Source: Escherichia coli (GTDB taxonomy: Bacteria > Pseudomonadota > Gammaproteobacteria > Enterobacterales > Enterobacteriaceae). From it: a DNA stretch of 64,000 nt. Numbering within the stretch: the stretch's first letter is position 1; each line of letters starts with the position of its first letter. A model generated the notes under the pieces. The model was not told the DNA's origin and did no database searches. It worked only from the letters and a program-made list of their open reading frames with translations. The translations under genes and the position numbers were made by a program. Of this stretch, positions 11,905 through 32,352 are shown one piece after another. The stretch lies in NCBI RefSeq assembly GCF_030013205.1, contig NZ_CP122648.1; one strand, 5' to 3'.

Positions 11905-12479
11905 TGGCATTCAGAATGAGTGAACAACCACGGACCATAAAAATTTATAATCTGCTGGCCGGAACTAATGAATTTATTGGTGAAGGTGATGCATATATTC
12001 CGCCTCATACAGGTCTGCCAGCAAACAGTACCGATATTGCACCGCCAGATATTCCGGCTGGCTTCGTGGCTGTTTTCAACAGTGATGAGTCATCGTGGCA
12101 TCTCGTTGAAGATCATCGGGGTAAAACGGTTTATGACGTGGCTTCCGGCGACGCGTTATTTATTTCTGAACTCGGTCCGTTACCGGAAAATGTTACCTGG
12201 TTATCGCCGGAAGGGGAGTTTCAGAAGTGGAACGGCACAGCCTGGGTGAAGGATACGGAAGCAGAAAAACTGTTCCGGATCCGGGAGGCGGAAGAAACAA
12301 AAAACAACCTGATGCAGGTAGCCAGTGAGCATATTGCGCCGCTTCAGGATGCTGCAGATCTGGAAATCGCAACGGAGGAAGAAATCTCGTTGCTGGAAGC
12401 ATGGAAAAAGTATCGGGTATTGCTGAACCGTGTTGATACGTCAACTGCACAGGATATTGAATGGCCAGCACTGCCGTAG
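11904..12479 (+). CDS. tfaQ: Tail fibre assembly protein (Tfa family)
   Basis: 191 aa; start overlaps the stf stop; conserved Tfa C-terminal region. Confidence 0.8.
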
Positions 12480-12576
12480 GGTAAAACATATAAATTCTAT
12501 AATTAGATGTATCTTTCCATTTACGGCAAGGAAGGGGGCTTGGAAGACGTAAAGCATCTCACACCGAGATTATTTT

Positions 12577-13167
12577 TTATATGTCAGGTGTCTGAAGTTT
12601 TGCTTTGGCTCTTAAAATGGTTTGCCGCGAGGTTTTGAATTCCCGGGCAATGGCACTTATACTTACACCTGACTTAATTCGTTCGAATACCGCCTGTTTC
12701 TGTTCTTCATTTAACACAGGTGGTCGACCAAAACGTTTCCCTGCGCCGCGGGCACTTACTATCCCGGAATGAGTGCGTTCAAGTAAAAGGTCTCGTTCAA
12801 ATTCAGCGACTGCTGAAATTACTTGCATCATCATTTTTCCTGTTGGACTGGTCAGGTCAATGCCCCCCAATGCTAAGCAATGCACTCTGATACCTGTTTC
12901 GGTCAGTTGTTCCACTGTTTTCCTGATATCCATTGCATTACAACCAAGGCGATCCAGTTTTGTCACAATCAATTGATCACCACATTTCAGGCGAGCAAGC
13001 AACCGGTTAAAACCAGGACGCTCACTGGTTGCTGCTGAGCCGCTAATGTGTTCTTCGATTATTTGCTGAGGTTTGATTTTAAAACCTGCACTTTCGATTT
13101 CCCGGCGTTGATTTTCGGTGGTCTGATCCAGCGTTGATATCCGACAGTAAGCAAAAATTCGAGACAT
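12577..13167 (-). CDS. pinQ: Serine recombinase / DNA invertase (Pin family)
   Basis: 196 aa; N-terminal resolvase catalytic domain (YCRISTLDQ with catalytic Ser) and C-terminal HTH; convergent with tfa. Confidence 0.8.
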
Positions 13168-13483
13168 AGTGAGACTCTATACGAAATTGGTGTTCATATC
13201 ATAATGCATCTCAGAAAATAATTATGATTATTTTTGTGCATATTTGTATGTACACGTTCGAAAATAAACGAATGCGTATGCAACCCCGTAATTTTGGTGA
13301 GACCCAAAATCGATTTTGTGAAAAATGGCTTTAACTCGGTTTGTTTTTCGAGTTCCGGGCGGACTCAAGGAAGAAGAATAGTGTTGCGTGTTATTTTAAC
13401 CAGATTTCAAGTTGTTTGGTCGTGGAAAAGTGGAGCAAAATGTTGTTAAAGTGGAAAAATGATAAAAAAGTAAGTTTATTATA

Positions 13484-13717
13484 TTACATTTTACCATTTA
13501 AATTTTGGTTGTCTTTAAGAACTGATATCGCTGTTTGTAATAATTCTTTGTTATCCAGCCATGATTTTTTCTTTATGTTTCCTTCAATGTAATCAAGCAA
13601 TGTTCTGGTATTGATAGGTCTTCCCTGTTTTGCTACTTCCACTACAGCATCCCCTAGGATAATTCTTACTTCAGGAAGCTGCGCAGGGAACCACTTTAGG
13701 GTGTCTTTTGATTTCAT
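13484..13717 (-). CDS. ydfK: Small prophage protein YdfK-like (77 aa)
   Basis: ORF 13484..13750; internal ATG at 13715-13717 with an AAGGAA Shine-Dalgarno-like sequence gives 77 aa. Confidence 0.55.
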   Translation of the reverse strand: MKSKDTLKWFPAQLPEVRIILGDAVVEVAKQGRPINTRTLLDYIEGNIKKKSWLDNKELLQTAISVLKDNQNLNGKM

Positions 13718-14502
13718 GAAGATATTCCTTAAAATATTATTGATTTTCATTGCGATATTGTATGTCTGATTCAGGATATGTTGACTTATACATCGGTTTT
13801 GTCTGGGTTATTGGATATGCCAATCCCTAATTTTATTAGGGCATGACTAAAAATGCTGAATATGATAAGGAGAGATGTGATTATCAGTATGCTGTTCATA
13901 TAGCCTCGAATTAGTAATGTGTTATATATGATATAGTTGACAATTTTTATCTTGGGTGTTCTTAAAGTTCGTAGATAAACATTGTCGTTTCAGGTATACA
14001 GGAATGCTAACAGGTGGCAGCAAAAATCAGGCGGTTTATGGCGCAAGCTGAAGCGGCAACTGCAAACTATCTTATGCAGAGACTCTACACGGATTGGGTT
14101 TAAAAGTATACATAGATAACAGTTTTTATCTGAAAAAGAAAAATATCAAGGTGATATAGCCTATATGCCTTTGATGCGGAGGAATGAATGTGATGGGAGT
14201 GATGTATCTGAATAGTTGAAAAACCGCAGACACGCCTTATGCAAGAACGTGCTGCGGTTGGCTGGTAAATTTTTCGATAGTGTGAGTATTGAATGATTTC
14301 CAGCCGTTCTTGATTTTACGCATAAATCCATGAAAAAACTACTTATCTGTTGGGGAGTTTTTTTGGGGCATATATGGGACAGAAATAGGCCCCAGATAGA
14401 CACTGAGATCGAACTTAGGATGCTTTTTAAAAAATGCAACTATCTGAAAAAACCTAGAAAACGCCAAGGAAACCACAGGATGGGAAAAAACACCTGTGAA
14501 TT

Positions 14503-15786
14503 ATGGATTTCCAGTTATATTCGCTCGGCGCAGCGTTAGTGTTTCATGAAATATTTTTTCCTGAATCATCAACGGCAATGGCGTTAATTCTGGCAATGGG
14601 AACCTACGGTGCAGGTTATGTGGCGCGTATTGTCGGAGCATTTATTTTCGGCAAAATGGGCGACAGAATCGGGCGTAAAAAAGTGCTCTTTATTACCATC
14701 ACTATGATGGGGATCTGTACTACCTTAATTGGTGTGCTGCCGACCTATGCACAAATTGGTGTGTTTGCGCCAATTTTGCTGGTGACGCTGCGTATTATTC
14801 AGGGGCTGGGGGCAGGCGCGGAAATTTCCGGTGCCGGCACGATGCTGGCGGAATATGCACCAAAAGGTAAGCGCGGAATTATCTCCTCATTTGTTGCTAT
14901 GGGGACTAACTGCGGAACCTTGAGCGCAACGGCAATCTGGGCCTTTATGTTCTTCATTCTCAGTAAAGAGGAACTGCTTGCGTGGGGATGGCGTATACCG
15001 TTCCTGGCGAGCGTTGTCGTGATGGTCTTTGCTATCTGGTTGCGTATGAATCTGAAAGAAAGCCCGGTCTTTGAGAAGGTTAACGACAGCAACCAACCGA
15101 CAGCAAAACCTGCACCTGCTGGTAGCATGTTCCAGAGCAAATCCTTCTGGCTGGCAACAGGGCTGCGTTTTGGTCAGGCTGGTAACTCCGGTTTAATTCA
15201 GACTTTCCTTGCAGGCTATTTAGTGCAGACGTTATTGTTTAACAAAGCAATTCCAACAGATGCATTGATGATCAGTTCGATTCTCGGCTTTATGACCATT
15301 CCGTTCCTTGGTTGGTTATCCGATAAAATAGGTCGCCGGATCCCGTATATTATTATGAATACCTCTGCGATTGTGCTGGCGTGGCCAATGCTTTCTATCA
15401 TCGTAGATAAAAGCTATGCCCCGAGCACCATTATGGTTGCACTGATTGTGATTCATAACTGTGCGGTGCTGGGATTATTTGCTCTGGAAAACATTACCAT
15501 GGCAGAAATGTTCGGCTGTAAAAACCGCTTTACCCGGATGGCGATTTCTAAAGAAATTGGTGGTCTTATCGCTTCCGGTTTTGGTCCTATCCTGGCGGGT
15601 ATTTTCTGCACCATGACGGAATCCTGGTATCCGATCGCCATTATGATCATGGCATATTCAGTGATTGGTTTAATCTCTGCGCTGAAAATGCCAGAAGTGA
15701 GAGACCGTGATTTAAGTGCACTGGAAGATGCCGCGGAAGATCAACCGCGTGTTGTAACAGCTGCGCAACCTTCAAGAAGTCTGTAA
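14503..15786 (+). CDS. ydfJ: MFS metabolite:H+ symporter-family transporter, apparently N-terminally truncated by the prophage insertion
   Basis: 427 aa polytopic membrane protein starting in what looks like the first transmembrane helix (MDFQLYSLGAALVFHEIFFP); an in-frame stop lies immediately upstream; a phage non-coding region precedes it. Confidence 0.7.
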   Translation: MDFQLYSLGAALVFHEIFFPESSTAMALILAMGTYGAGYVARIVGAFIFGKMGDRIGRKKVLFITITMMGICTTLIGVLPTYAQIGVFAPILLVTLRIIQGLGAGAEISGAGTMLAEYAPKGKRGIISSFVAMGTNCGTLSATAIWAFMFFILSKEELLAWGWRIPFLASVVVMVFAIWLRMNLKESPVFEKVNDSNQPTAKPAPAGSMFQSKSFWLATGLRFGQAGNSGLIQTFLAGYLVQTLLFNKAIPTDALMISSILGFMTIPFLGWLSDKIGRRIPYIIMNTSAIVLAWPMLSIIVDKSYAPSTIMVALIVIHNCAVLGLFALENITMAEMFGCKNRFTRMAISKEIGGLIASGFGPILAGIFCTMTESWYPIAIMIMAYSVIGLISALKMPEVRDRDLSALEDAAEDQPRVVTAAQPSRSL

Positions 15787-15875
15787 ATCCTCCATCCCTT
15801 CTCTTACCGGAGAGGGGATTTTTTATTCATATAACAAAACATGCAGCTTGCCATATTTAAATTTAAGGAATTGTT

Positions 15876-19409: not shown

Positions 19410-21455
19410 ATGACAACAATGAATCCTTTCCTTGTGCAAAGCACACTGCCGTATCTGGCTCCCCATTTTGATCAAATTGCCAATCATCACTATCGCCCGG
19501 CATTCGATGAGGGAATGCAGCAAAAGCGGGCAGAAATTGCTGCCATCGCGCTTAACCCGCAAACACCTGATTTCAACAATACTATTCTGGCACTGGAACA
19601 AAGCGGAGAATTACTTACCCGCGTTACCAGCGTCTTTTTTGCGATGACTGCGGCGCATACTAATGATGAATTACAGCGTCTTGATGAACAGTTTTCCGCT
19701 GAACTGGCGGAACTGGCTAATGATATCTATCTGAACGGTGAATTATTCGCGCGGGTAGATGCTGTCTGGCAACGCCGTGAATCCCTGGGACTTGATAGTG
19801 AATCCATCCGCCTGGTGGAGGTCATTCATCAACGTTTTGTCCTTGCCGGAGCCAAACTTGCACAAGCTGATAAAGCAAAATTAAAAGTCCTGAATACAGA
19901 AGCTGCGACCCTGACCAGCCAGTTTAACCAGCGGTTACTGGCAGCAAATAAATCCGGCGGTCTGGTTGTGAACGATTTCGCGCAGCTGGCAGGAATGAGT
20001 GAGCAAGAGATTGCGCTGGCGGCAGAGGCGGCTCGCGAGAAAGGTCTGGATAACAAATGGCTGATTCCGTTGCTGAATACCACCCAGCAACCAGCGCTTG
20101 CTGAACTGCGCGATCGCGCGACGCGTGAAAAACTGTTCACTGCGGGCTGGACGCGAGCGGAAAAAAATGATGCCAATGATACCCGCGCTATCATTCAACG
20201 TCTGGTGGAGATCCGCGCGCAGCAGGCGAAACTGCTTGGTTTCCCTCATTATGCCGCATGGAAAATCGCCGATCAGATGGCAAAAACGCCAGAAGCAGCA
20301 CTCAACTTTATGCGGGAAATTGTTCCAGCGGCGCGTCAACGTGCGAGCGATGAATTAGCCTCCATACAGGCGGTTATCGATAAGCAGCAGGGCGGGTTTA
20401 GCGCGCAGCCGTGGGACTGGGCATTTTATGCCGAGCAGGTAAGACGTGAGAAATTCGATCTCGATGAATCGCAGCTCAAGCCATATTTTGAATTAAACAC
20501 GGTGTTGAATGAAGGTGTATTCTGGACCGCGAATCAGCTCTTCGGTATTAAGTTTGTCGAACGTTTTGATATTCCTGTCTACCATCCTGACGTTCGTGTA
20601 TGGGAAATTTTTGATCATAATGGCGTGGGGCTGGCGTTATTTTACGGTGATTTCTTCGCCCGTGATTCAAAAAGCGGCGGTGCATGGATGGGCAATTTTG
20701 TTGAGCAATCAACGCTTAATGAAACGCATCCGGTAATTTATAACGTCTGCAATTATCAGAAACCCGCTGCCGGTGAGCCTGCGTTGTTACTCTGGGATGA
20801 TGTCATAACCTTATTCCATGAATTTGGTCATACGTTGCACGGCCTCTTTGCCCGCCAGCGTTATGCCACACTTTCCGGCACCAACACGCCGCGTGATTTT
20901 GTCGAATTTCCGTCGCAAATCAACGAACACTGGGCAACGCATCCGCAGGTATTCGCTCGCTACGCCCGGCATTATCAGAGCGGGGCAGCAATGCCTGACG
21001 AACTGCAACAGAAAATGCGTAATGCCAGCCTGTTCAATAAAGGGTATGAGATGAGCGAACTGCTTAGCGCCGCACTTCTCGATATGCGCTGGCATTGCCT
21101 GGAAGAAAACGAAGCAATGCAGGATGTCGATGATTTCGAATTGCGGGCGCTGGTGGCAGAAAATATGGATCTTCCCGCTATACCGCCACGCTATCGCAGC
21201 AGTTATTTCGCCCATATTTTTGGTGGCGGATATGCCGCAGGTTATTACGCTTATCTGTGGACGCAAATGTTGGCCGATGATGGTTACCAGTGGTTTGTTG
21301 AGCAGGGCGGATTAACGCGTGAAAATGGGCGGCGTTTTCGCGAGGCGATTCTTTCCAGAGGTAACAGCGAAGATCTGGAACGCCTGTATCGACAATGGCG
21401 CGGTAAGGCACCTCAGATTATGACGATGCTGCAACATCGTGGCTTGAACGTATAA
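19410..21455 (+). CDS. dcp: Dipeptidyl carboxypeptidase II (M3-family zinc metallopeptidase)
   Basis: 681 aa from the ATG at 19410 (AGGAGAAG upstream); HEFGH zinc-binding motif present. Confidence 0.9.
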   Translation: MTTMNPFLVQSTLPYLAPHFDQIANHHYRPAFDEGMQQKRAEIAAIALNPQTPDFNNTILALEQSGELLTRVTSVFFAMTAAHTNDELQRLDEQFSAELAELANDIYLNGELFARVDAVWQRRESLGLDSESIRLVEVIHQRFVLAGAKLAQADKAKLKVLNTEAATLTSQFNQRLLAANKSGGLVVNDFAQLAGMSEQEIALAAEAAREKGLDNKWLIPLLNTTQQPALAELRDRATREKLFTAGWTRAEKNDANDTRAIIQRLVEIRAQQAKLLGFPHYAAWKIADQMAKTPEAALNFMREIVPAARQRASDELASIQAVIDKQQGGFSAQPWDWAFYAEQVRREKFDLDESQLKPYFELNTVLNEGVFWTANQLFGIKFVERFDIPVYHPDVRVWEIFDHNGVGLALFYGDFFARDSKSGGAWMGNFVEQSTLNETHPVIYNVCNYQKPAAGEPALLLWDDVITLFHEFGHTLHGLFARQRYATLSGTNTPRDFVEFPSQINEHWATHPQVFARYARHYQSGAAMPDELQQKMRNASLFNKGYEMSELLSAALLDMRWHCLEENEAMQDVDDFELRALVAENMDLPAIPPRYRSSYFAHIFGGGYAAGYYAYLWTQMLADDGYQWFVEQGGLTRENGRRFREAILSRGNSEDLERLYRQWRGKAPQIMTMLQHRGLNV

Positions 21456-21819
21456 ACACCACCAATGGCTGGCCTGGATTTATCGCCAGACCAGCCTCGT
21501 TATAGCAGTAATTGCAGCAGCTGGGTGAGGGCAAACTTCACCGCTAATGCGAATGCCGTTTCGCAGTCGCCAGCAAAATTACTTTTTTTGTATACCCTTC
21601 CGTTATAATAATTTTCAAATTTATAAATCTGATTGTTCTGAAATATGTTTAAGACTCTTTAATCTTCTTCTTACTTTAGTGAGTTAAATTCTCTTAATAT
21701 TTGACAGCTAGTTGCCTGATTTTAAATGCCTTATAACAATTGGCAGTATTCTTATTTGTCAATTATAAAAATAGCAACCAGACTTAATAAGTCAAACCAA
21801 ACGCAATTAAGGAGTCAGT

Positions 21820-22212
21820 ATGAAATTTCAGGCCATTGTATTAGCAAGTTTTCTTGTCATGCCTTATGCGTTGGCAGATGACCAGGGCGGATTAAAACAG
21901 GATGCAGCGCCACCGCCGCCTCATGCAATAGAAGATGGCTATCGCGGAACCGATGATGCAAAAAAAATGACCGTTGATTTCGCAAAAACCATGCATGATG
22001 GCGCTTCGGTTTCACTACGCGGTAATTTGATTTCTCACAAAGGAGAGGACCGTTACGTTTTTCGCGATAAGAGCGGTGAAATTAATGTTGTTATTCCTGC
22101 GGCAGTCTTTGATGGACGAGAAGTTCAGCCGGACCAGATGATCAACATTAGCGGTAGTCTGGATAAGAAAAGCGCTCCGGCCGTCGTTCGGGTCACTCAT
22201 TTGCAGAAATAA
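21820..22212 (+). CDS. ydeI: Periplasmic OB-fold (BOF/YgiW-family) stress protein
   Basis: 130 aa with signal peptide [19 protein letters not shown]. Confidence 0.8.
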
Positions 22213-22251
22213 AAATAAATTAGCCTGATGGCCTGAACTACTGGGCCATTA

Positions 22252-22290
22252 GGTTATTGGGTTATTGGGTTATTGGGTTATTGGGTTATG
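22252..22290. repeat. Short tandem repeat: four perfect copies of GGTTATTG plus a partial fifth
   Basis: Read directly from the sequence; lies in the intergenic region between ydeI and dgcZ. Confidence 0.9.
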
Positions 22291-22490
22291 CTATTTGTCA
22301 TCCTTTTAATTGCGATAATGCAGGCTTAATTTACAGAATTAAACACTTTTTTATCTGCTGATTTTGTTTCAAATCACAATGTTATCTCAGAGGTGATTCA
22401 TAACTTCGGATTTCTATGAAAATATTGACGTAATTTTGCTTTTCTCTCGTTAGAATAGCGCGCACAAGGAACTGTGAAAAAGGAGTGGCA

Positions 22491-23381
22491 ATGATCAAGA
22501 AGACAACGGAAATTGATGCCATCTTGTTAAATCTCAATAAGGCTATCGATGCCCACTACCAGTGGCTGGTAAGTATGTTTCGCAGCGTAGTCGCGAGAGA
22601 TGCCAGTAAGCCAGAAATAACGGATAACCATTCTTATGGACTGTGCCAGTTTGGTCGGTGGATTGATCATCTGGGACCACTCGATAACGATGAATTACCT
22701 TATGTTCGGCTAATGGATTCTGCCCATCAACATATGCATAACTGTGGTCGGGAATTAATGCTGGCTATTGTTGAAAATCACTGGCAGGACGCGCATTTCG
22801 ACGCCTTTCAGGAAGGGGTGCTTTCTTTTACTGCGGCATTAACCGATTACAAAATTTATTTGCTGACGATCCGTAGCAATATGGATGTTTTGACGGGATT
22901 GCCGGGTCGTCGGGTTCTTGATGAATCCTTTGATCATCAGTTACGCAACGCTGAGCCTCTGAATCTTTATTTAATGTTGTTGGATATTGACCGATTTAAA
23001 TTGGTTAATGATACCTACGGGCATTTAATCGGCGATGTAGTATTACGCACCCTGGCAACTTACTTAGCCAGTTGGACGCGCGATTACGAAACGGTTTATC
23101 GCTACGGTGGCGAAGAATTTATCATTATTGTCAAAGCGGCTAATGATGAAGAAGCATGTCGTGCAGGTATCAGAATTTGCCAGTTAGTCGATAACCATGC
23201 CATCACACATTCTGAAGGGCATATCAACATTACCGTGACAGCAGGTGTGAGTCGCGCATTTCCTGAAGAGCCTCTGGATGTGGTCATTGGAAGAGCGGAC
23301 CGGGCAATGTATGAGGGTAAGCAAACCGGAAGAAATCGCTGTATGTTTATTGACGAACAAAACGTGATTAACCGAGTTTAA
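22491..23381 (+). CDS. dgcZ: Zinc-regulated diguanylate cyclase (CZB domain plus GGDEF)
   Basis: 296 aa from the ATG at 22491; GGEEF active-site motif (RYGGEEF) present. Confidence 0.85.
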   Translation: MIKKTTEIDAILLNLNKAIDAHYQWLVSMFRSVVARDASKPEITDNHSYGLCQFGRWIDHLGPLDNDELPYVRLMDSAHQHMHNCGRELMLAIVENHWQDAHFDAFQEGVLSFTAALTDYKIYLLTIRSNMDVLTGLPGRRVLDESFDHQLRNAEPLNLYLMLLDIDRFKLVNDTYGHLIGDVVLRTLATYLASWTRDYETVYRYGGEEFIIIVKAANDEEACRAGIRICQLVDNHAITHSEGHINITVTAGVSRAFPEEPLDVVIGRADRAMYEGKQTGRNRCMFIDEQNVINRV

Positions 23382-23417
23382 GCTCCGTTTAACATTCATT
23401 GAGAAAACTGATGCTAC

Positions 23418-23524
23418 TGTGTCAACGATCCGTTATCAGTGCAGGAAAATGCCTGTTAGCGTAAAAGCAAAACACAAATCTATCCATGCAAGCATTCACC
23501 GCCGGTTTACTGGCGGTTTTTTTT
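23418..23524 (+). ncRNA. mgrR: Candidate small RNA (MgrR-like), ending at an intrinsic terminator
   Basis: PhoP-box-like direct repeat AGTTTA-N5-CGTTTA at 23375-23391, then an A/T-rich stretch, then a stem (ACCGCCGG / CTGGCGGT) followed by eight T at 23498-23524; no plausible ORF. Position between dgcZ and mgtS matches the recalled mgrR location. Start coordinate is approximate. Confidence 0.4.
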
Positions 23525-23599
23525 CGCCGTCATAAAAATCAGGCCCCTTGTACACAGTTGTAACAAGGGGCCGGTTAGGTGAGGGATTATCTCCGTTCA

Positions 23600-23695
23600 T
23601 TAGTCATCCCATTTGTGGCTGAAATACGCGGCCAGAAAACCAGAAAATAAAATTATTCCCAGTACGGCCATAAAAACATTCATATTACCCAGCAT
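23600..23695 (-). CDS. mgtS: Small membrane protein MgtS (31 aa)
   Basis: Not in the ORF track (below 60 aa); reverse strand reads ATG CTG GGT AAT ATG ... = MLGNMNVFMAVLGIILFSGFLAAYFSHKWDD, with a GGAGG Shine-Dalgarno sequence 7 nt upstream and a downstream hairpin. Confidence 0.8.
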   Translation of the reverse strand: MLGNMNVFMAVLGIILFSGFLAAYFSHKWDD

Positions 23696-23821
23696 TATTT
23701 GCCTCCGTTTATGGTGTGGTGTGTTTCCTCGCTTACCTTAATTTTCATCTCAATGAGAAAGATATTAGCAGAGGTAACCTAAACGAAGGCTGAATTAAAT
23801 TTTTATTGTGTTCGACTTAAA

Positions 23822-25009
23822 TCAACAAAGCGCGGGCTGCCCCCACGGTCTTGCACGAATTCCTTTTAACATAAGCACCCACGCAGCAATGATCACCAAC
23901 GCTAAGATGATAAACAGCGAGAAAGGCGGCAGACTGGTAAGCACTATGCCACTCACTAATGGGTTAATCGCCGCACCAAGCCAGCCTAAAGACTGGGCGG
24001 AAAAATAGCTGGCTTTCATTCCTGGCGGCGCAATATGGTCAATCAACATATACTCGCCCGGCGCATAAATGATTTCACCGACAGTAAATACCGCAGCTGA
24101 CATACCCCACAATAGCAGGCTGTTGCCGGAAAAAATAAAACCAACCAGACCGATGACGAAACAGAGGGTGCCTGCTGTCATCAGCGCGCGGATGTTAGCC
24201 GGGTTAAGGCGGCGGCCCACGGAATATTGCAACGTAACTACCATGGCAGCATTAACCGGAAGAACAACCGCAACCACCTTTTCGGCAAAATCCCCATCAG
24301 CAATCACCATCACATATTGTGAAATGCACGAGGCAAATGCGCCGCTAACAAAGGAAGCCAGAAAACCAGAGCAGGTAAACCACAACAGTGCTTTATCTTG
24401 TAATAAAACTGTCGGCGACCAGGCACTGCCTGTTTCCGTGGCGATGATTTTCTCGCTGCGCTTTACCCAAATTTGAATGAAAAGCATGGGAAACGCGGAA
24501 CAGATAGCTGCCAGCCAGAAGGGCAGATTGATGCTCTGCATCACCAACAACGTGCCGAGCGGCGGACCGATGGTCCAGCCAATGTTTAGCATGGTGTAGT
24601 TGATTGAGAAGATTTTCGTTTTGCTGGTGGAGGAAAGATTGTCGGCAAACCAGGCTTTCAACACGGTAGCAAAAACGGAATAGGCGCAGTTAATAAGGGC
24701 AAAAAAGAGCACCACCAGCGTCACGTTATTCACTAAAGGAATGGCAATAAAACCGCTGGCGAAGGCGGTAATTGCCAGTAACATATAGCGTTTCTTGTCG
24801 AACTTATCCGCCAGGATACCAAAACCGAGGCTAAAAACGACGCCAATAGTGAGCGCAATTGTCATCGCATAACCGATTAGATCGACACTCAGGCTGTACT
24901 GGCGACTCAAGTAAATGGTCATAAACGGCAGCGTAGCGCCGCGTCCGATGGTTAATAACAACGACGAGGCAAGAAGGGCGCTGGTAGAGCGTCGTAGGGA
25001 TAAGTTCAT
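23822..25009 (-). CDS. ydeE: MFS transporter
   Basis: 395 aa, 12-TM-like hydropathy pattern. Confidence 0.85.
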   Translation of the reverse strand: MNLSLRRSTSALLASSLLLTIGRGATLPFMTIYLSRQYSLSVDLIGYAMTIALTIGVVFSLGFGILADKFDKKRYMLLAITAFASGFIAIPLVNNVTLVVLFFALINCAYSVFATVLKAWFADNLSSTSKTKIFSINYTMLNIGWTIGPPLGTLLVMQSINLPFWLAAICSAFPMLFIQIWVKRSEKIIATETGSAWSPTVLLQDKALLWFTCSGFLASFVSGAFASCISQYVMVIADGDFAEKVVAVVLPVNAAMVVTLQYSVGRRLNPANIRALMTAGTLCFVIGLVGFIFSGNSLLLWGMSAAVFTVGEIIYAPGEYMLIDHIAPPGMKASYFSAQSLGWLGAAINPLVSGIVLTSLPPFSLFIILALVIIAAWVLMLKGIRARPWGQPALC

Positions 25010-26149: not shown

Positions 26150-26846
26150 ATCGCGGGAAAAAGTACTTTACCTGGAACTCGAAAATATTGCTGTAAAGTA
26201 ACGAATAATCCAGCGGAATAGAGTTACTGTCCACAGCCTGGGTCTGGATTTTAAGTATGGGATCCCGTGGGCTGATCCGTAAAATACTGGCGATTTCTGG
26301 GGTAGGAAAAGTAGGGGAGAAAGTTTCAAAGGTGCCAATGATTTTGATCCCGCATTCGTTCTCAATATACGAAAATTTGGATTTTTGCATATGTGCTACG
26401 GTTAAATCAGGAAAACGTGCCACTGACATCCACGTTTCTTCTAATTGTGCTGCATTATCCTCAATGAATCGCAGTCTCTTTATGTAATAAACCTGCTCAC
26501 CAGTCACTAAATTCAGCTCAGTCGCAATAGGGGGTGAAGCATCCTGCACTTCAAATTTCATAATCTGACTTCCTGCCTCCTTGCCGCTTTTATGCGCAAT
26601 TTCACTGAAGCTGTTCATGTGATCAATGTGTGCAACAAAATTCTTTTTTTGAATATATGTTCCTGAACCATGCTTTCTATGAATAATTCCTTCGCCTTCC
26701 AGCAAGGATAATGCCTTACGCAGGGTATTACGCGAAACATTATAACGAACAGCGAGTTCAGCTTCTGACGGCAACAAATCACCAACATGCCATGAATAGC
26801 CATTGATCTCGGATTTAAGTAAGCGGGCAATCTTTTGAAAAATCAC
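26148..26846 (-). CDS. GntR/HutC-family transcriptional regulator (HTH plus UTRA-like effector domain)
   Basis: 232 aa; N-terminal GntR HTH (LPSEAELAVRYNVSRNTLRKAL); divergent from the PTS operon. Confidence 0.8.
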   Translation of the reverse strand: MIFQKIARLLKSEINGYSWHVGDLLPSEAELAVRYNVSRNTLRKALSLLEGEGIIHRKHGSGTYIQKKNFVAHIDHMNSFSEIAHKSGKEAGSQIMKFEVQDASPPIATELNLVTGEQVYYIKRLRFIEDNAAQLEETWMSVARFPDLTVAHMQKSKFSYIENECGIKIIGTFETFSPTFPTPEIASILRISPRDPILKIQTQAVDSNSIPLDYSLLYSNIFEFQVKYFFPR

Positions 26847-27044
26847 TTTTGCACCTTTTAAGAGCCATTGAAAACAAGGAGTTGAGTCCTGATTGGTTTA
26901 TCGTATGGTCGAGTCGTTTAATTATCACCCTGATGTTGAACAACTTTAGTGCTGTATTACTGTGATCAATGTACCAGGACGTATAGCTACTGCGGGATAT
27001 GATATTTACACAATGTAATCTGTTATATACCAGTAAGGGAAAAT

Positions 27045-27356
27045 ATGAAAAAAATATTGTTAGTTTGCGCTGCGGGCATGTCAACCAGTATGCTGGTTAA
27101 ACGTATGATTGATCATGCTAACGCTATTTCACTTGAAGTTAATATTTCCGCATTGGCGATTGCAGAGGCTAAAGGGAAAATTAAAAATAACGAAGTTGAC
27201 GTTGTTTTACTTGGCCCGCAAGTTCGCTTTCAGAAACCAGAGATTGAAGCTGTTGCACAGGGGAAAATGCCTGTAGCTGTTATCGAGATGAAAGACTATG
27301 GCACCATGAACGGACAGGCAGTTCTTGAATTTGCGATGAAACTACTGCAAGAGTAA
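27045..27356 (+). CDS. PTS EIIB component, lactose/cellobiose family
   Basis: 103 aa; MKKILLVCAAGMSTSMLV with the phosphorylatable Cys near the N-terminus. Confidence 0.8.
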   Translation: MKKILLVCAAGMSTSMLVKRMIDHANAISLEVNISALAIAEAKGKIKNNEVDVVLLGPQVRFQKPEIEAVAQGKMPVAVIEMKDYGTMNGQAVLEFAMKLLQE

Positions 27357-27431
27357 GAATCTAATATTATTAAACTATTACCTGAACTAACTTTTCACAC
27401 ATCATAAAATGGCTATGGCATACATGCTTTA

Positions 27432-28793
27432 TTGGGATGTATAAATATCCAGAACAACAGGTATAAAAAAATGGGATTAATGACCTCATTCGAACGTGGA
27501 ATGGAACGTTTTCTTGTTCCAGTTGCTATCAAGTTAAACTCACAAAAACATGTTGCAGCGGTGAGAGATGGATTCGTTTTTACGTTTCCAATTATCATGG
27601 CAAGCTCATTAATTATATTAATAAACTTTGCCATATTATCGCCAGACGGCTTTATTGCCGGACTGCTGCATCTGAACAGCGTTTTTCCCAACCTTGAAAA
27701 AGCACAAGCTATTTTTACTCCGGTAATGAATGGCTCTGTAAATATCATGTCAATTATGATTGCTTTCCTGGTCGCCAGAAATATGGCGATTAGCTATGAG
27801 CAAGATGATCTTTTATGCGGATTAACGGCAATAGGCGCATTTTTTATTGTTTATACGCCATATCAGATGATAGATGGGCAAGCATTCCTGACGACCAAAT
27901 ATCTCGGCGCACAGGGGTTGTTTGTTGCTGTTATAGTTGCATTAATCACAAGTGAAATATTTTGTCGCTTAGCTCGAAACCCAAAAATCACCATAACGAT
28001 GCCGGCAGCTGTACCTCCTGCGGTAGCGCGTTCATTTAAAGTTTTATTGCCAATATTTTTTGTCATGGTGTTCTTTTCCGCACTTAATTATTGCCTGACA
28101 CTGATATCCCCGGCAGGATTAAACGATCTTATTTACACATTAATCCAGACGCCGCTCAAACATATGGGAACGAATATCTTTGCGGTAATTATCCTGGGGG
28201 CTGTGGGTAATTTCCTTTGGGTGCTGGGGATCCACGGACCTAATACCACCTCGGCAATTCGAGAAACTGTTTTTTCTGAGGCTAATCTGGAGAATCTCTC
28301 CTGGGCCGCTCAACACGGCACTACCTGGGGCGCGCCATATCCGATTACCTGGACTTCTATTAATGATGCATTCGCCAACTGCGGCGGTTCAGGTATGACG
28401 TTGGGGTTATTGTTGGCTATTTTTATCGCTTCTAAGCGTGCGGAATACCGTGATCTGGCAAAAATGTCGTTTATCCCCGGTATTTTCAATATCAATGAAC
28501 CGGTAATGTTCGGCCTTCCTATTGTACTTAACCCCATCATGATGGTGCCGTTTATTCTGGTTCCCATTGTTAACTGTGCCATTGGTTACTTCTTTGTTTC
28601 GATGGAAATTATTCCACCGGTTGCTTATGCCGTGCCCTGGACTACGCCCGGACCTTTAATTGCTTTCCTCGGAACCGGGGGAAACTGGCTGGCGTTACTG
28701 GTGGGTTTTTTATGTTTAGGTGTGGCGACAATGATCTATTTACCTTTTGTTATTGCCGCCAACAAGGTCAATAACATGACAACTAACGGATAA
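27432..28793 (+). CDS. PTS EIIC permease, lactose/cellobiose family
   Basis: 453 aa polytopic membrane protein between the IIB and IIA genes; alternative start at 27472. Confidence 0.8.
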   Translation: MGCINIQNNRYKKMGLMTSFERGMERFLVPVAIKLNSQKHVAAVRDGFVFTFPIIMASSLIILINFAILSPDGFIAGLLHLNSVFPNLEKAQAIFTPVMNGSVNIMSIMIAFLVARNMAISYEQDDLLCGLTAIGAFFIVYTPYQMIDGQAFLTTKYLGAQGLFVAVIVALITSEIFCRLARNPKITITMPAAVPPAVARSFKVLLPIFFVMVFFSALNYCLTLISPAGLNDLIYTLIQTPLKHMGTNIFAVIILGAVGNFLWVLGIHGPNTTSAIRETVFSEANLENLSWAAQHGTTWGAPYPITWTSINDAFANCGGSGMTLGLLLAIFIASKRAEYRDLAKMSFIPGIFNINEPVMFGLPIVLNPIMMVPFILVPIVNCAIGYFFVSMEIIPPVAYAVPWTTPGPLIAFLGTGGNWLALLVGFLCLGVATMIYLPFVIAANKVNNMTTNG

Positions 28794-28814
28794 TCCCATT
28801 TACACAGGAAGGAG

Positions 28815-29132
28815 ATGTTGATGTTTGCAGATGAAGAACTTGTTATGGAGTTACTGATCAACGCGGGACAGGCACGTTCTGATGCGATGGAAGCCATACG
28901 TTGTGCCGGGCAAAAAGACTGGCAGGGCGCAACTCAGCTAATGGCCAGTTCGGAATTAGCCTGTCTTCAGGCACATAAGATTCAGACCGCGTTAATTAGT
29001 CAGGATGAAGGTTGTGGCAAAATAGAAGTTAATTTAATTCTGGTTCATGCACAGGATCATTTGATGAATGCAATATTATGCCAGGATTTAGCCAGGGAAA
29101 TTATTTCATTAAGAAAAGAGCTCCATGCCTGA
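28815..29132 (+). CDS. PTS EIIA component, lactose/cellobiose family
   Basis: 105 aa helical protein with a conserved His (QAHKIQTAL) as in ChbA/CelC-type IIA. Confidence 0.75.
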   Translation: MLMFADEELVMELLINAGQARSDAMEAIRCAGQKDWQGATQLMASSELACLQAHKIQTALISQDEGCGKIEVNLILVHAQDHLMNAILCQDLAREIISLRKELHA

Positions 29133-29184
29133 TTTTTTCCTCCAGTGCGATAGCTGGAGGAAATTATTACACTCTTAAGGATAA

Positions 29185-32325
<3,141 letters not shown>

Positions 32326-32352
32326 GACTTCAGGAAGATATTACGGAGATAT

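Follow-up and report, generated by a model that had tools for sequence, protein, structure and literature searches.

A lineage-restricted, variable-number octanucleotide repeat between ydeI and dgcZ in Escherichia coli

Does a short tandem repeat upstream of a diguanylate cyclase gene vary in length among strains of Escherichia coli, and does such variation matter to the genes on either side? The question is raised by an array of 8-bp direct repeats in a stretch of E. coli DNA of 64,000 nucleotides (hereafter the window, to which all coordinates refer). The original prediction placed the array in the ydeI-dgcZ intergenic region, about 200 bp upstream of dgcZ and within a promoter region, and proposed that its copy number might vary, modulate expression and serve as a strain-typing marker. 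The location is correct: the array lies between the ydeI CDS (21820-22212) and the dgcZ ATG (22491), and 202 bp separate its end from the dgcZ start codon. The repeat is delimited as follows:

22252-22289, no strand assigned: tandem array, (GGTTATTG)x4 + GGTTAT, from the sequence, Tandem Repeats Finder, simulations and the allelic series
22248-22251, no strand assigned: imperfect leading partial unit ATTA, from the Tandem Repeats Finder start at 22248

The perfect array is 38 bp long and consists of four full units of GGTTATTG followed by the 6-base partial unit GGTTAT, i.e., 4.75 copies. The four perfect copies and one partial copy described at first can thus be read directly from the sequence, and the array is real, while the limits given for it (22252-22290, 4.9 copies) are one base too long: the unit would continue with T at 22290, but the base there is G and falls outside the perfect array. 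The flanks read GGGCCATTA on the 5' side and GCTATTTG on the 3' side, or, in longer readings, CTGGGCCATTA before the first GGTTATTG and GCTATTTGTC after GGTTAT. Tandem Repeats Finder reports 22248-22289 with a period of 8, 5.2 copies and 97% matches, a span that takes in the imperfect leading ATTA; its score of 77 is the highest in the 64-kb window. The run of positions at which a base equals the base eight positions further on is 30 long at the array, and the next-best run in the window, for any period from 4 to 12, is 8. As a chance baseline we used 300 first-order Markov simulations of the window, in which the longest run was 13 (mean 9.5, sd 0.9). These head-to-tail copies of one short unit are far beyond chance.

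To compare copy number across the species we used a 401-bp query centred on the array, which found the locus in 5,381 of the 5,426 complete E. coli genomes. In 23 of these 5,381 the array has two or more full units, so that copy number is not identical in all strains. The alleles are distributed as follows:

5 full units (span 409 bp), 5 genomes: ETEC1748, ETEC4067, ETEC4069, ETEC4070, ETEC4071
4 full units (span 401 bp), 2 genomes: K_EC180 and ETEC4079, both 100% identical to the window
3 full units (span 393 bp), 10 genomes: O139:H1 W13-16, P15-25, EC556, EC571, EC581, ETEC1738, ETEC6333, ETEC6334, ETEC1701, GMF054
2 full units (span 385 bp), 6 genomes: CFSAN018748, ETEC4068, ETEC4075, HCP5S3_I2, LCP30S3_I5, O169:H41 Res13
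1 full unit (span 377 bp): every other full-length match listed

The proposed variation therefore exists, with two, three, four and five full units found, but it is confined to these few genomes and to one pig-associated haplotype family. By direct alignment the length differences are always whole 8-bp units with otherwise identical flanks, giving whole-unit alleles of 1-5 full units in conserved surroundings. Swine or wild boar are the source of 22 of the 23 expanded genomes, and GMF054 is the sole human isolate. The pig-associated strains are O139:H1 ST1 edema-disease strains, such as W13-16 and P15-25 (PMC8798679), and porcine ETEC; K_EC180 is an Stx2e-positive pig isolate (PMC8071739).

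Are the extra copies real? Long-read assemblies can err in repeats, and a sequencing or assembly artefact has to be considered. However, the alleles recur in independent projects from different countries and on different platforms (K_EC180, for example, is a hybrid PacBio+Illumina assembly), and every difference is an exact 8-bp unit and not an error of the homopolymer type. Recurrence in independent projects together with exact 8-bp steps excludes an artefact in practice, and we give this explanation next to no weight. In a larger assembly collection, the exact DgcZ variant of this lineage occurs in 338 blocks; the three places shown carry four, three and two units, and these arrays come from independent assemblies.

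Elsewhere in the species, one full unit followed by GGTTAT, a 14-bp proto-repeat, is the fixed state. The first unit of this proto-repeat is usually imperfect, e.g., GGGTATTG in K-12 and GGGTACTG in strain 9000, and is the perfect GGTTATTGGGTTAT in PCN033 and in the B2 strain NU14. The perfect 14-mer is a minority state: a 42-mer containing it is found in 160 genomes only. About 160 genomes thus hold the perfect proto-repeat without expanding it, and expansion occurs only in part of this minority. We also looked for gain or loss of units in other backgrounds, using synthetic alleles of about 370 bp as queries. A B2 allele with one extra unit had no full-length match at 99% identity or above, and its best same-background matches carried an 8-bp gap. 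Likewise, the best matches of a K-12 allele with one extra unit reached 97.9%, i.e., an 8-bp gap, and a K-12 allele with one unit fewer had, like that with an extra unit, no full-length match at 99% or above. For outgroup species, exact-pattern scans of a genome contig collection with the sequence of the hairpin next to the array (described below) returned no matches. The cause probably lies in the collection or its index and not in biology; the sequence adjoining the hairpin occurs in thousands of E. coli genomes, among them the type strain ATCC 11775.

How are the expanded alleles related to one another? Below we compare units and single-nucleotide differences from the window:

K_EC180 and ETEC4079, 4 units: 0 SNPs over 20.4 kb of flank
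ETEC1748, 5 units: 0 SNPs over 20.4 kb of flank
O139:H1 W13-16, 3 units: 1 SNP over a 10.3-kb core (ydfI to eamA)
CFSAN018748, 2 units: 5 SNPs over the 10.3-kb core
GMF054, 3 units, and O169:H41 Res13, 2 units: 51 and 58 SNPs, respectively, over the 10.3-kb core
PCN033, 1 unit, the nearest one-unit strain: 83 SNPs over the 10.3-kb core
K-12, 1 unit: 152 SNPs over 5.9 kb

Judged by these flanks, the expanded alleles all fall into a single local haplotype family. Since no SNP separates the four-unit from the five-unit alleles and only one separates the window from a three-unit allele, array length changes much faster than substitutions accumulate, and among close relatives copy number outpaces point substitution. 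At the same time, the same allele is shared within apparent epidemiological clusters, as represented by consensus assemblies (e.g., ETEC4067/4069/4070/4071 and EC556/571/581). O169:H41 Res13 and GMF054 both have G instead of A at 22251, so that the leading partial unit ATTA reads ATTG and the perfect array grows leftward by half a unit; this A>G change marks a second sub-haplotype, likewise with expanded arrays.

The wider neighbourhood differs between these strains in other ways. In the window, ydfJ is 5'-truncated (approximately 12100-15790) beside the Qin-like prophage remnant genes tfaQ, pinQ, ydfK and ynfT; GMF054 and PCN033 have an intact rspA-rspB-ydfJ at this site. An accessory island of approximately 6.2 kb (approximately 26150-32330) lies between eamA and marB and encodes a GntR-family regulator, PTS IIB/IIC/IIA, a carbohydrate porin and a 6-phospho-beta-glucosidase. 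PCN033 lacks the island and has marB immediately after eamA.

What process could have produced this pattern? The likely explanation, in our view, is a variable-number tandem repeat (VNTR) that arose by slipped-strand mispairing, is restricted to one lineage and has little or no effect on ydeI or dgcZ. The anatomy of the array, its allelic series, its restriction to one lineage and its speed relative to SNPs are observations; slippage and neutrality are what we infer from them. All E. coli carry the proto-repeat of one 8-bp unit plus GGTTAT, its first unit imperfect in most strains and the perfect GGTTATTGGGTTAT in a minority. In this scenario, in one haplotype family, represented almost only by pig strains (the O139:H1 ST1 clone and porcine ETEC), the perfect proto-repeat would have gained a unit, and after this first gain whole units would have been gained and lost faster than point mutations build up. 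The proto-repeat would thus be stable at 1.75 copies and unstable from 2.75 copies upward. The approximately 160 genomes with a perfect but unexpanded proto-repeat fit such a length threshold for slippage. Perfect units, whole-unit changes, a stable proto-repeat and a length uncoupled from SNPs form together the established signature of replication slippage at a simple-sequence repeat.

An alternative is that the repeat encodes something, either a small protein or iterons for a DNA-binding protein. A mechanical ORF of 34 codons with a TTG start (22257-22361) does begin inside the array, and direct repeats can be response-regulator sites. However, the ORF has no Shine-Dalgarno sequence, and we reject it as a small gene because its reading frame shifts with every 8-bp change in copy number. 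Known binders of direct repeats use a spacing of 10-11 bp, which the 8-bp period does not match. Nor is the unit peculiar to this locus: a metagenome scan for GGTTATTGGGTTATTGGGTTAT returned at least 120 stretches, and those listed all lie on unrelated contigs, in separate arrays of 2-11 full units that lack the E. coli flank. Arrays of the unit in so many unrelated contigs argue against a coding or iteron role, which we consider very improbable; they show only that GGTTATTG is a generic microsatellite motif. An Rfam scan of 21400-23900 gave no match at the repeat.

Could extra units nevertheless affect the neighbouring genes? The features on either side of the array are as follows:

21820-22212, + strand: ydeI CDS, the upstream neighbour, encoding an OB-fold stress-tolerance protein; from the ORF and from the RefSeq annotation (ydeI, WP_000671737.1) of K_EC180 and ETEC4079, where the locus is identical
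22221-22256, + strand: hairpin 9 nt past the ydeI stop, with arms at 22221-22234 and 22243-22256, an 8-nt loop and a 14-bp stem
22283-22325 (approximate limits from nested primers), + strand: region of the "proposed CysB box" of dgcZ in EPEC, which abuts or overlaps the last repeat unit (PMC13131220)
22330-22344, - strand: CpxR-box-like direct repeat GTTTA-N5-GTAAA, read from the sequence and invariant in eight strains
22451-22456, + strand: likely dgcZ -10 element TAGAAT, from the sequence; the reverse primer of the "no CsrA site" fusion ends in GCGCGC (22463) directly after it
22464-22490, + strand: short leader of dgcZ, a CsrA target, whose two GGA motifs are CAAGGAAC and the AAAGGAG Shine-Dalgarno sequence; from the sequence
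22491-23381, + strand: dgcZ (ydeH) CDS, encoding a zinc-regulated diguanylate cyclase; from the ORF and annotation, with Pfam CZB and GGDEF domains on the exact protein

On the ydeI side, the hairpin is stable (RNA fold -22.5 kcal/mol, z = -4.46; also scored as an inverted repeat), and its stem core is unchanged in eight divergent E. coli. The final five nucleotides of its 3' arm, GGTTA (22252-22256), are also the first five of repeat unit 1. With a stable, G+C-containing hairpin right after the ydeI stop, conserved across E. coli, the structure resembles intrinsic (Rho-independent) terminators, but unlike them it is followed by a tail, TTGGGTTATTGGG (UUGGGUUAUUGGG...), that is not a U-tract. 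A terminator scan did not call it, its loop and T-tail rules being unsatisfied, and we describe it as what looks like a terminator-like 3' hairpin and not as a proven terminator. Does the array act on the ydeI 3' end, through termination, mRNA 3'-end stability or read-through into dgcZ? The shared GGTTA, which ends the 3' arm, and the replacement of the downstream tail by later units would give it the means, and the minimum-free-energy fold of a 101-nt RNA with more units shows alternative registers. Yet the centroid structure of the expanded allele retains the hairpin, the tail is U-poor with and without expansion and yields no call in the terminator scan, and the first 14 nt past the hairpin core are the same in one-unit perfect alleles. 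We find an effect of this kind improbable.

Several changes upstream of the array are visible in the same region. In the window, ydeJ is an 81-bp pseudogene remnant (approximately 21500-21580, - strand), and the dcp-ydeI gap (21456-21819) is 365 bp; in K-12, which has an intact ydeJ, it measures 838 bp. In NU14, a B2 strain, the 5' part of ydeI is missing as well. In strain B27 (749-1446 in the numbering of its own locus, not of the window), an IS1B between ydeJ and dgcZ replaces ydeI, the hairpin and the repeat, and the only remaining match to the window is the last 94 bp before and into dgcZ.

On the dgcZ side, the likely -10 element and the fusion end point place the transcription start at about 22463-22465, as far as can be inferred. 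A simple sigma-70 scan did not call TAGAAT, its closest TTGACG being 20 bp off, and sigma-70 and terminator consensus scans found no promoter-like hexamers and nothing inside the array. The array thus lies approximately 175-212 bp 5' of the inferred start, outside the core promoter and not between a -35 and a -10 element. To call its surroundings a promoter region was too generous, for it also lies beyond the short fragment from 22386, which suffices for activity in reporter fusions.

These fusions come from a 2026 study of dgcZ in EPEC (PMC13131220), whose constructs we mapped to the window. Long fusions start at GCCTGATGGCC... (22223 here) and short ones at 22386, those without CsrA sites end at 22463, and the fragment from 22386 already drives the reporter (PMC13131220). 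Fusions that include the leader 22464-22490 are nearly silent, consistent with CsrA repression (PMC13131220). The fragment 22223-22385 changes the basal activity of dgcZ-cat and is required for copper induction: compared with the short fusion, the long one has lower activity in LB and a different activity in DMEM and M9, and only the long one is copper-inducible (PMC13131220). In the sequence, the nested cysB primers map to 22283-22304 (dgcZcysB1Bam) and 22302-23 (cysB3, mapped without its last two or three bases, which differ in the source strain), with cysB2 starting at 22290. The CysB box itself is a database prediction, and cysteine or sulfate gave no effect (PMC13131220), so that the site is unconfirmed.

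Approximately 40 bp beyond the proposed CysB box lies the CpxR-like box listed above. The CpxR consensus with which we compare it is GTAAA-N5-GTAAA. Judged by its sequence, this box might explain why only the long fragment responds to copper.

These data bear on the possibility that the array tunes dgcZ transcription, with the number of units altering upstream regulator sites and thereby the level of DgcZ and c-di-GMP/PGA-dependent adhesion. Each added unit, whose 8 bp amount to some three quarters of a helical turn, would be inserted beside or into the proposed CysB box, with the CpxR-like box 40 bp further on; alternatively, units could supply extra half-sites or displace whatever binds at the 5' side of the array. 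Three observations speak for such tuning: in EPEC the long fusion, the one that takes in the repeat region, behaves unlike the short one (PMC13131220); the nested "CysB" primers begin at the last repeat unit; and it is just in a pathogenic lineage that copy number varies. Against it, the array is at about -175 to -212, there is nothing 5' of it to displace apart from the ydeI hairpin, the CysB site lacks a cysteine or sulfate effect (PMC13131220), and the alleles appear stable within epidemiological clusters, unlike rapid on/off switching. Moreover, the EPEC fusions hold repeat number constant and leave the repeat joined to the other 95 bp of the upstream fragment (PMC13131220). Tuning is therefore unlikely in our estimate, and we keep it open because adjacent upstream DNA matters in the EPEC reporters and the proposed regulator site touches the last unit. 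It is tempting to go further and to see in the array of porcine edema-disease strains and ETEC a heritable, slippage-driven rheostat of DgcZ that would act through the copper/Cpx- or CysB-linked upstream region and, by way of DgcZ, on c-di-GMP-dependent PGA production and adhesion; we regard this more specific idea as a long shot.

Slippage with little or no effect on the neighbours remains the explanation that we favour. The array is flanked by the ydeI hairpin and the dgcZ upstream region, so that extra units for the most part make the spacer longer. What may count against neutrality is that the DNA directly 3' of the array is not inert in EPEC, with the proposed CysB box at the 3' edge of the repeat. 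Its restriction to one host-associated pathogenic lineage could also reflect selection rather than drift.

Downstream of dgcZ, a full-length Rfam match to the Hfq-binding sRNA STnc560 (280 bits, E = 2e-65) covers 23393-23606 on the + strand. It starts 12 nt past the dgcZ stop and is antisense to two genes for small proteins, mgtT (23496-23600, - strand) and mgtS (23600-23695, - strand). By position, it looks like an sRNA from the dgcZ 3' UTR that overlaps mgtS/mgtT.

How does the array compare with known repeat systems? Short-period VNTR loci are used in MLVA of E. coli O157 and generic E. coli. Like these loci, the array has perfect short head-to-tail units, whole-unit alleles, conserved flanks and variation between near-identical genomes; unlike them, it is polymorphic in one haplotype family only and monomorphic elsewhere, with 23 deviating genomes among 5,381 and not variation across lineages. 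Repeats upstream of promoters that grade expression include the 7-bp repeats of Haemophilus influenzae hmw1A/hmw2A and the TAAA tract of Neisseria meningitidis nadA. Like them, the dgcZ array is a short repeat whose copy number varies and which precedes a gene with a surface- or adhesion-related function, but it differs in lying well upstream of the promoter and outside verified binding sites, and in being known here from sequence alone. Tandem repeats have also been described in promoters of M. tuberculosis (PMC12817950). In a full-text literature search for the repeat sequence, no publication mentioned this repeat, and the sole match was an unrelated paper on an insect B chromosome.

As for strain typing, the array is of no use as a species-wide marker, because it is fixed outside one haplotype family. 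Within O139:H1/ST1-like porcine strains the earlier suggestion of a typing marker holds some promise: four alleles among the 23 complete genomes (Nei diversity about 0.7, hand-computed) make it a cheap PCR-length marker. It could help to subtype the edema-disease strains of O139:H1 ST1, which are otherwise very clonal, and porcine E. coli related to them, not E. coli in general.

In summary, the array is a real, fast-evolving VNTR, ordinary in kind and modestly useful for subtyping porcine O139:H1/ST1-like strains; any regulatory role is unproven. It offers a small, clean example of the birth of a bacterial microsatellite, in which a conserved proto-repeat would have become perfect, passed a length threshold in one lineage and turned hypervariable. 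If copy number affected dgcZ, replication slippage would be linked to c-di-GMP signalling and biofilm in a veterinary pathogen. E. coli mostly switches by DNA inversion and Dam methylation rather than by simple-sequence repeats, and a rheostat at dgcZ, if true, would represent simple-sequence "contingency" control of second-messenger signalling in this species.
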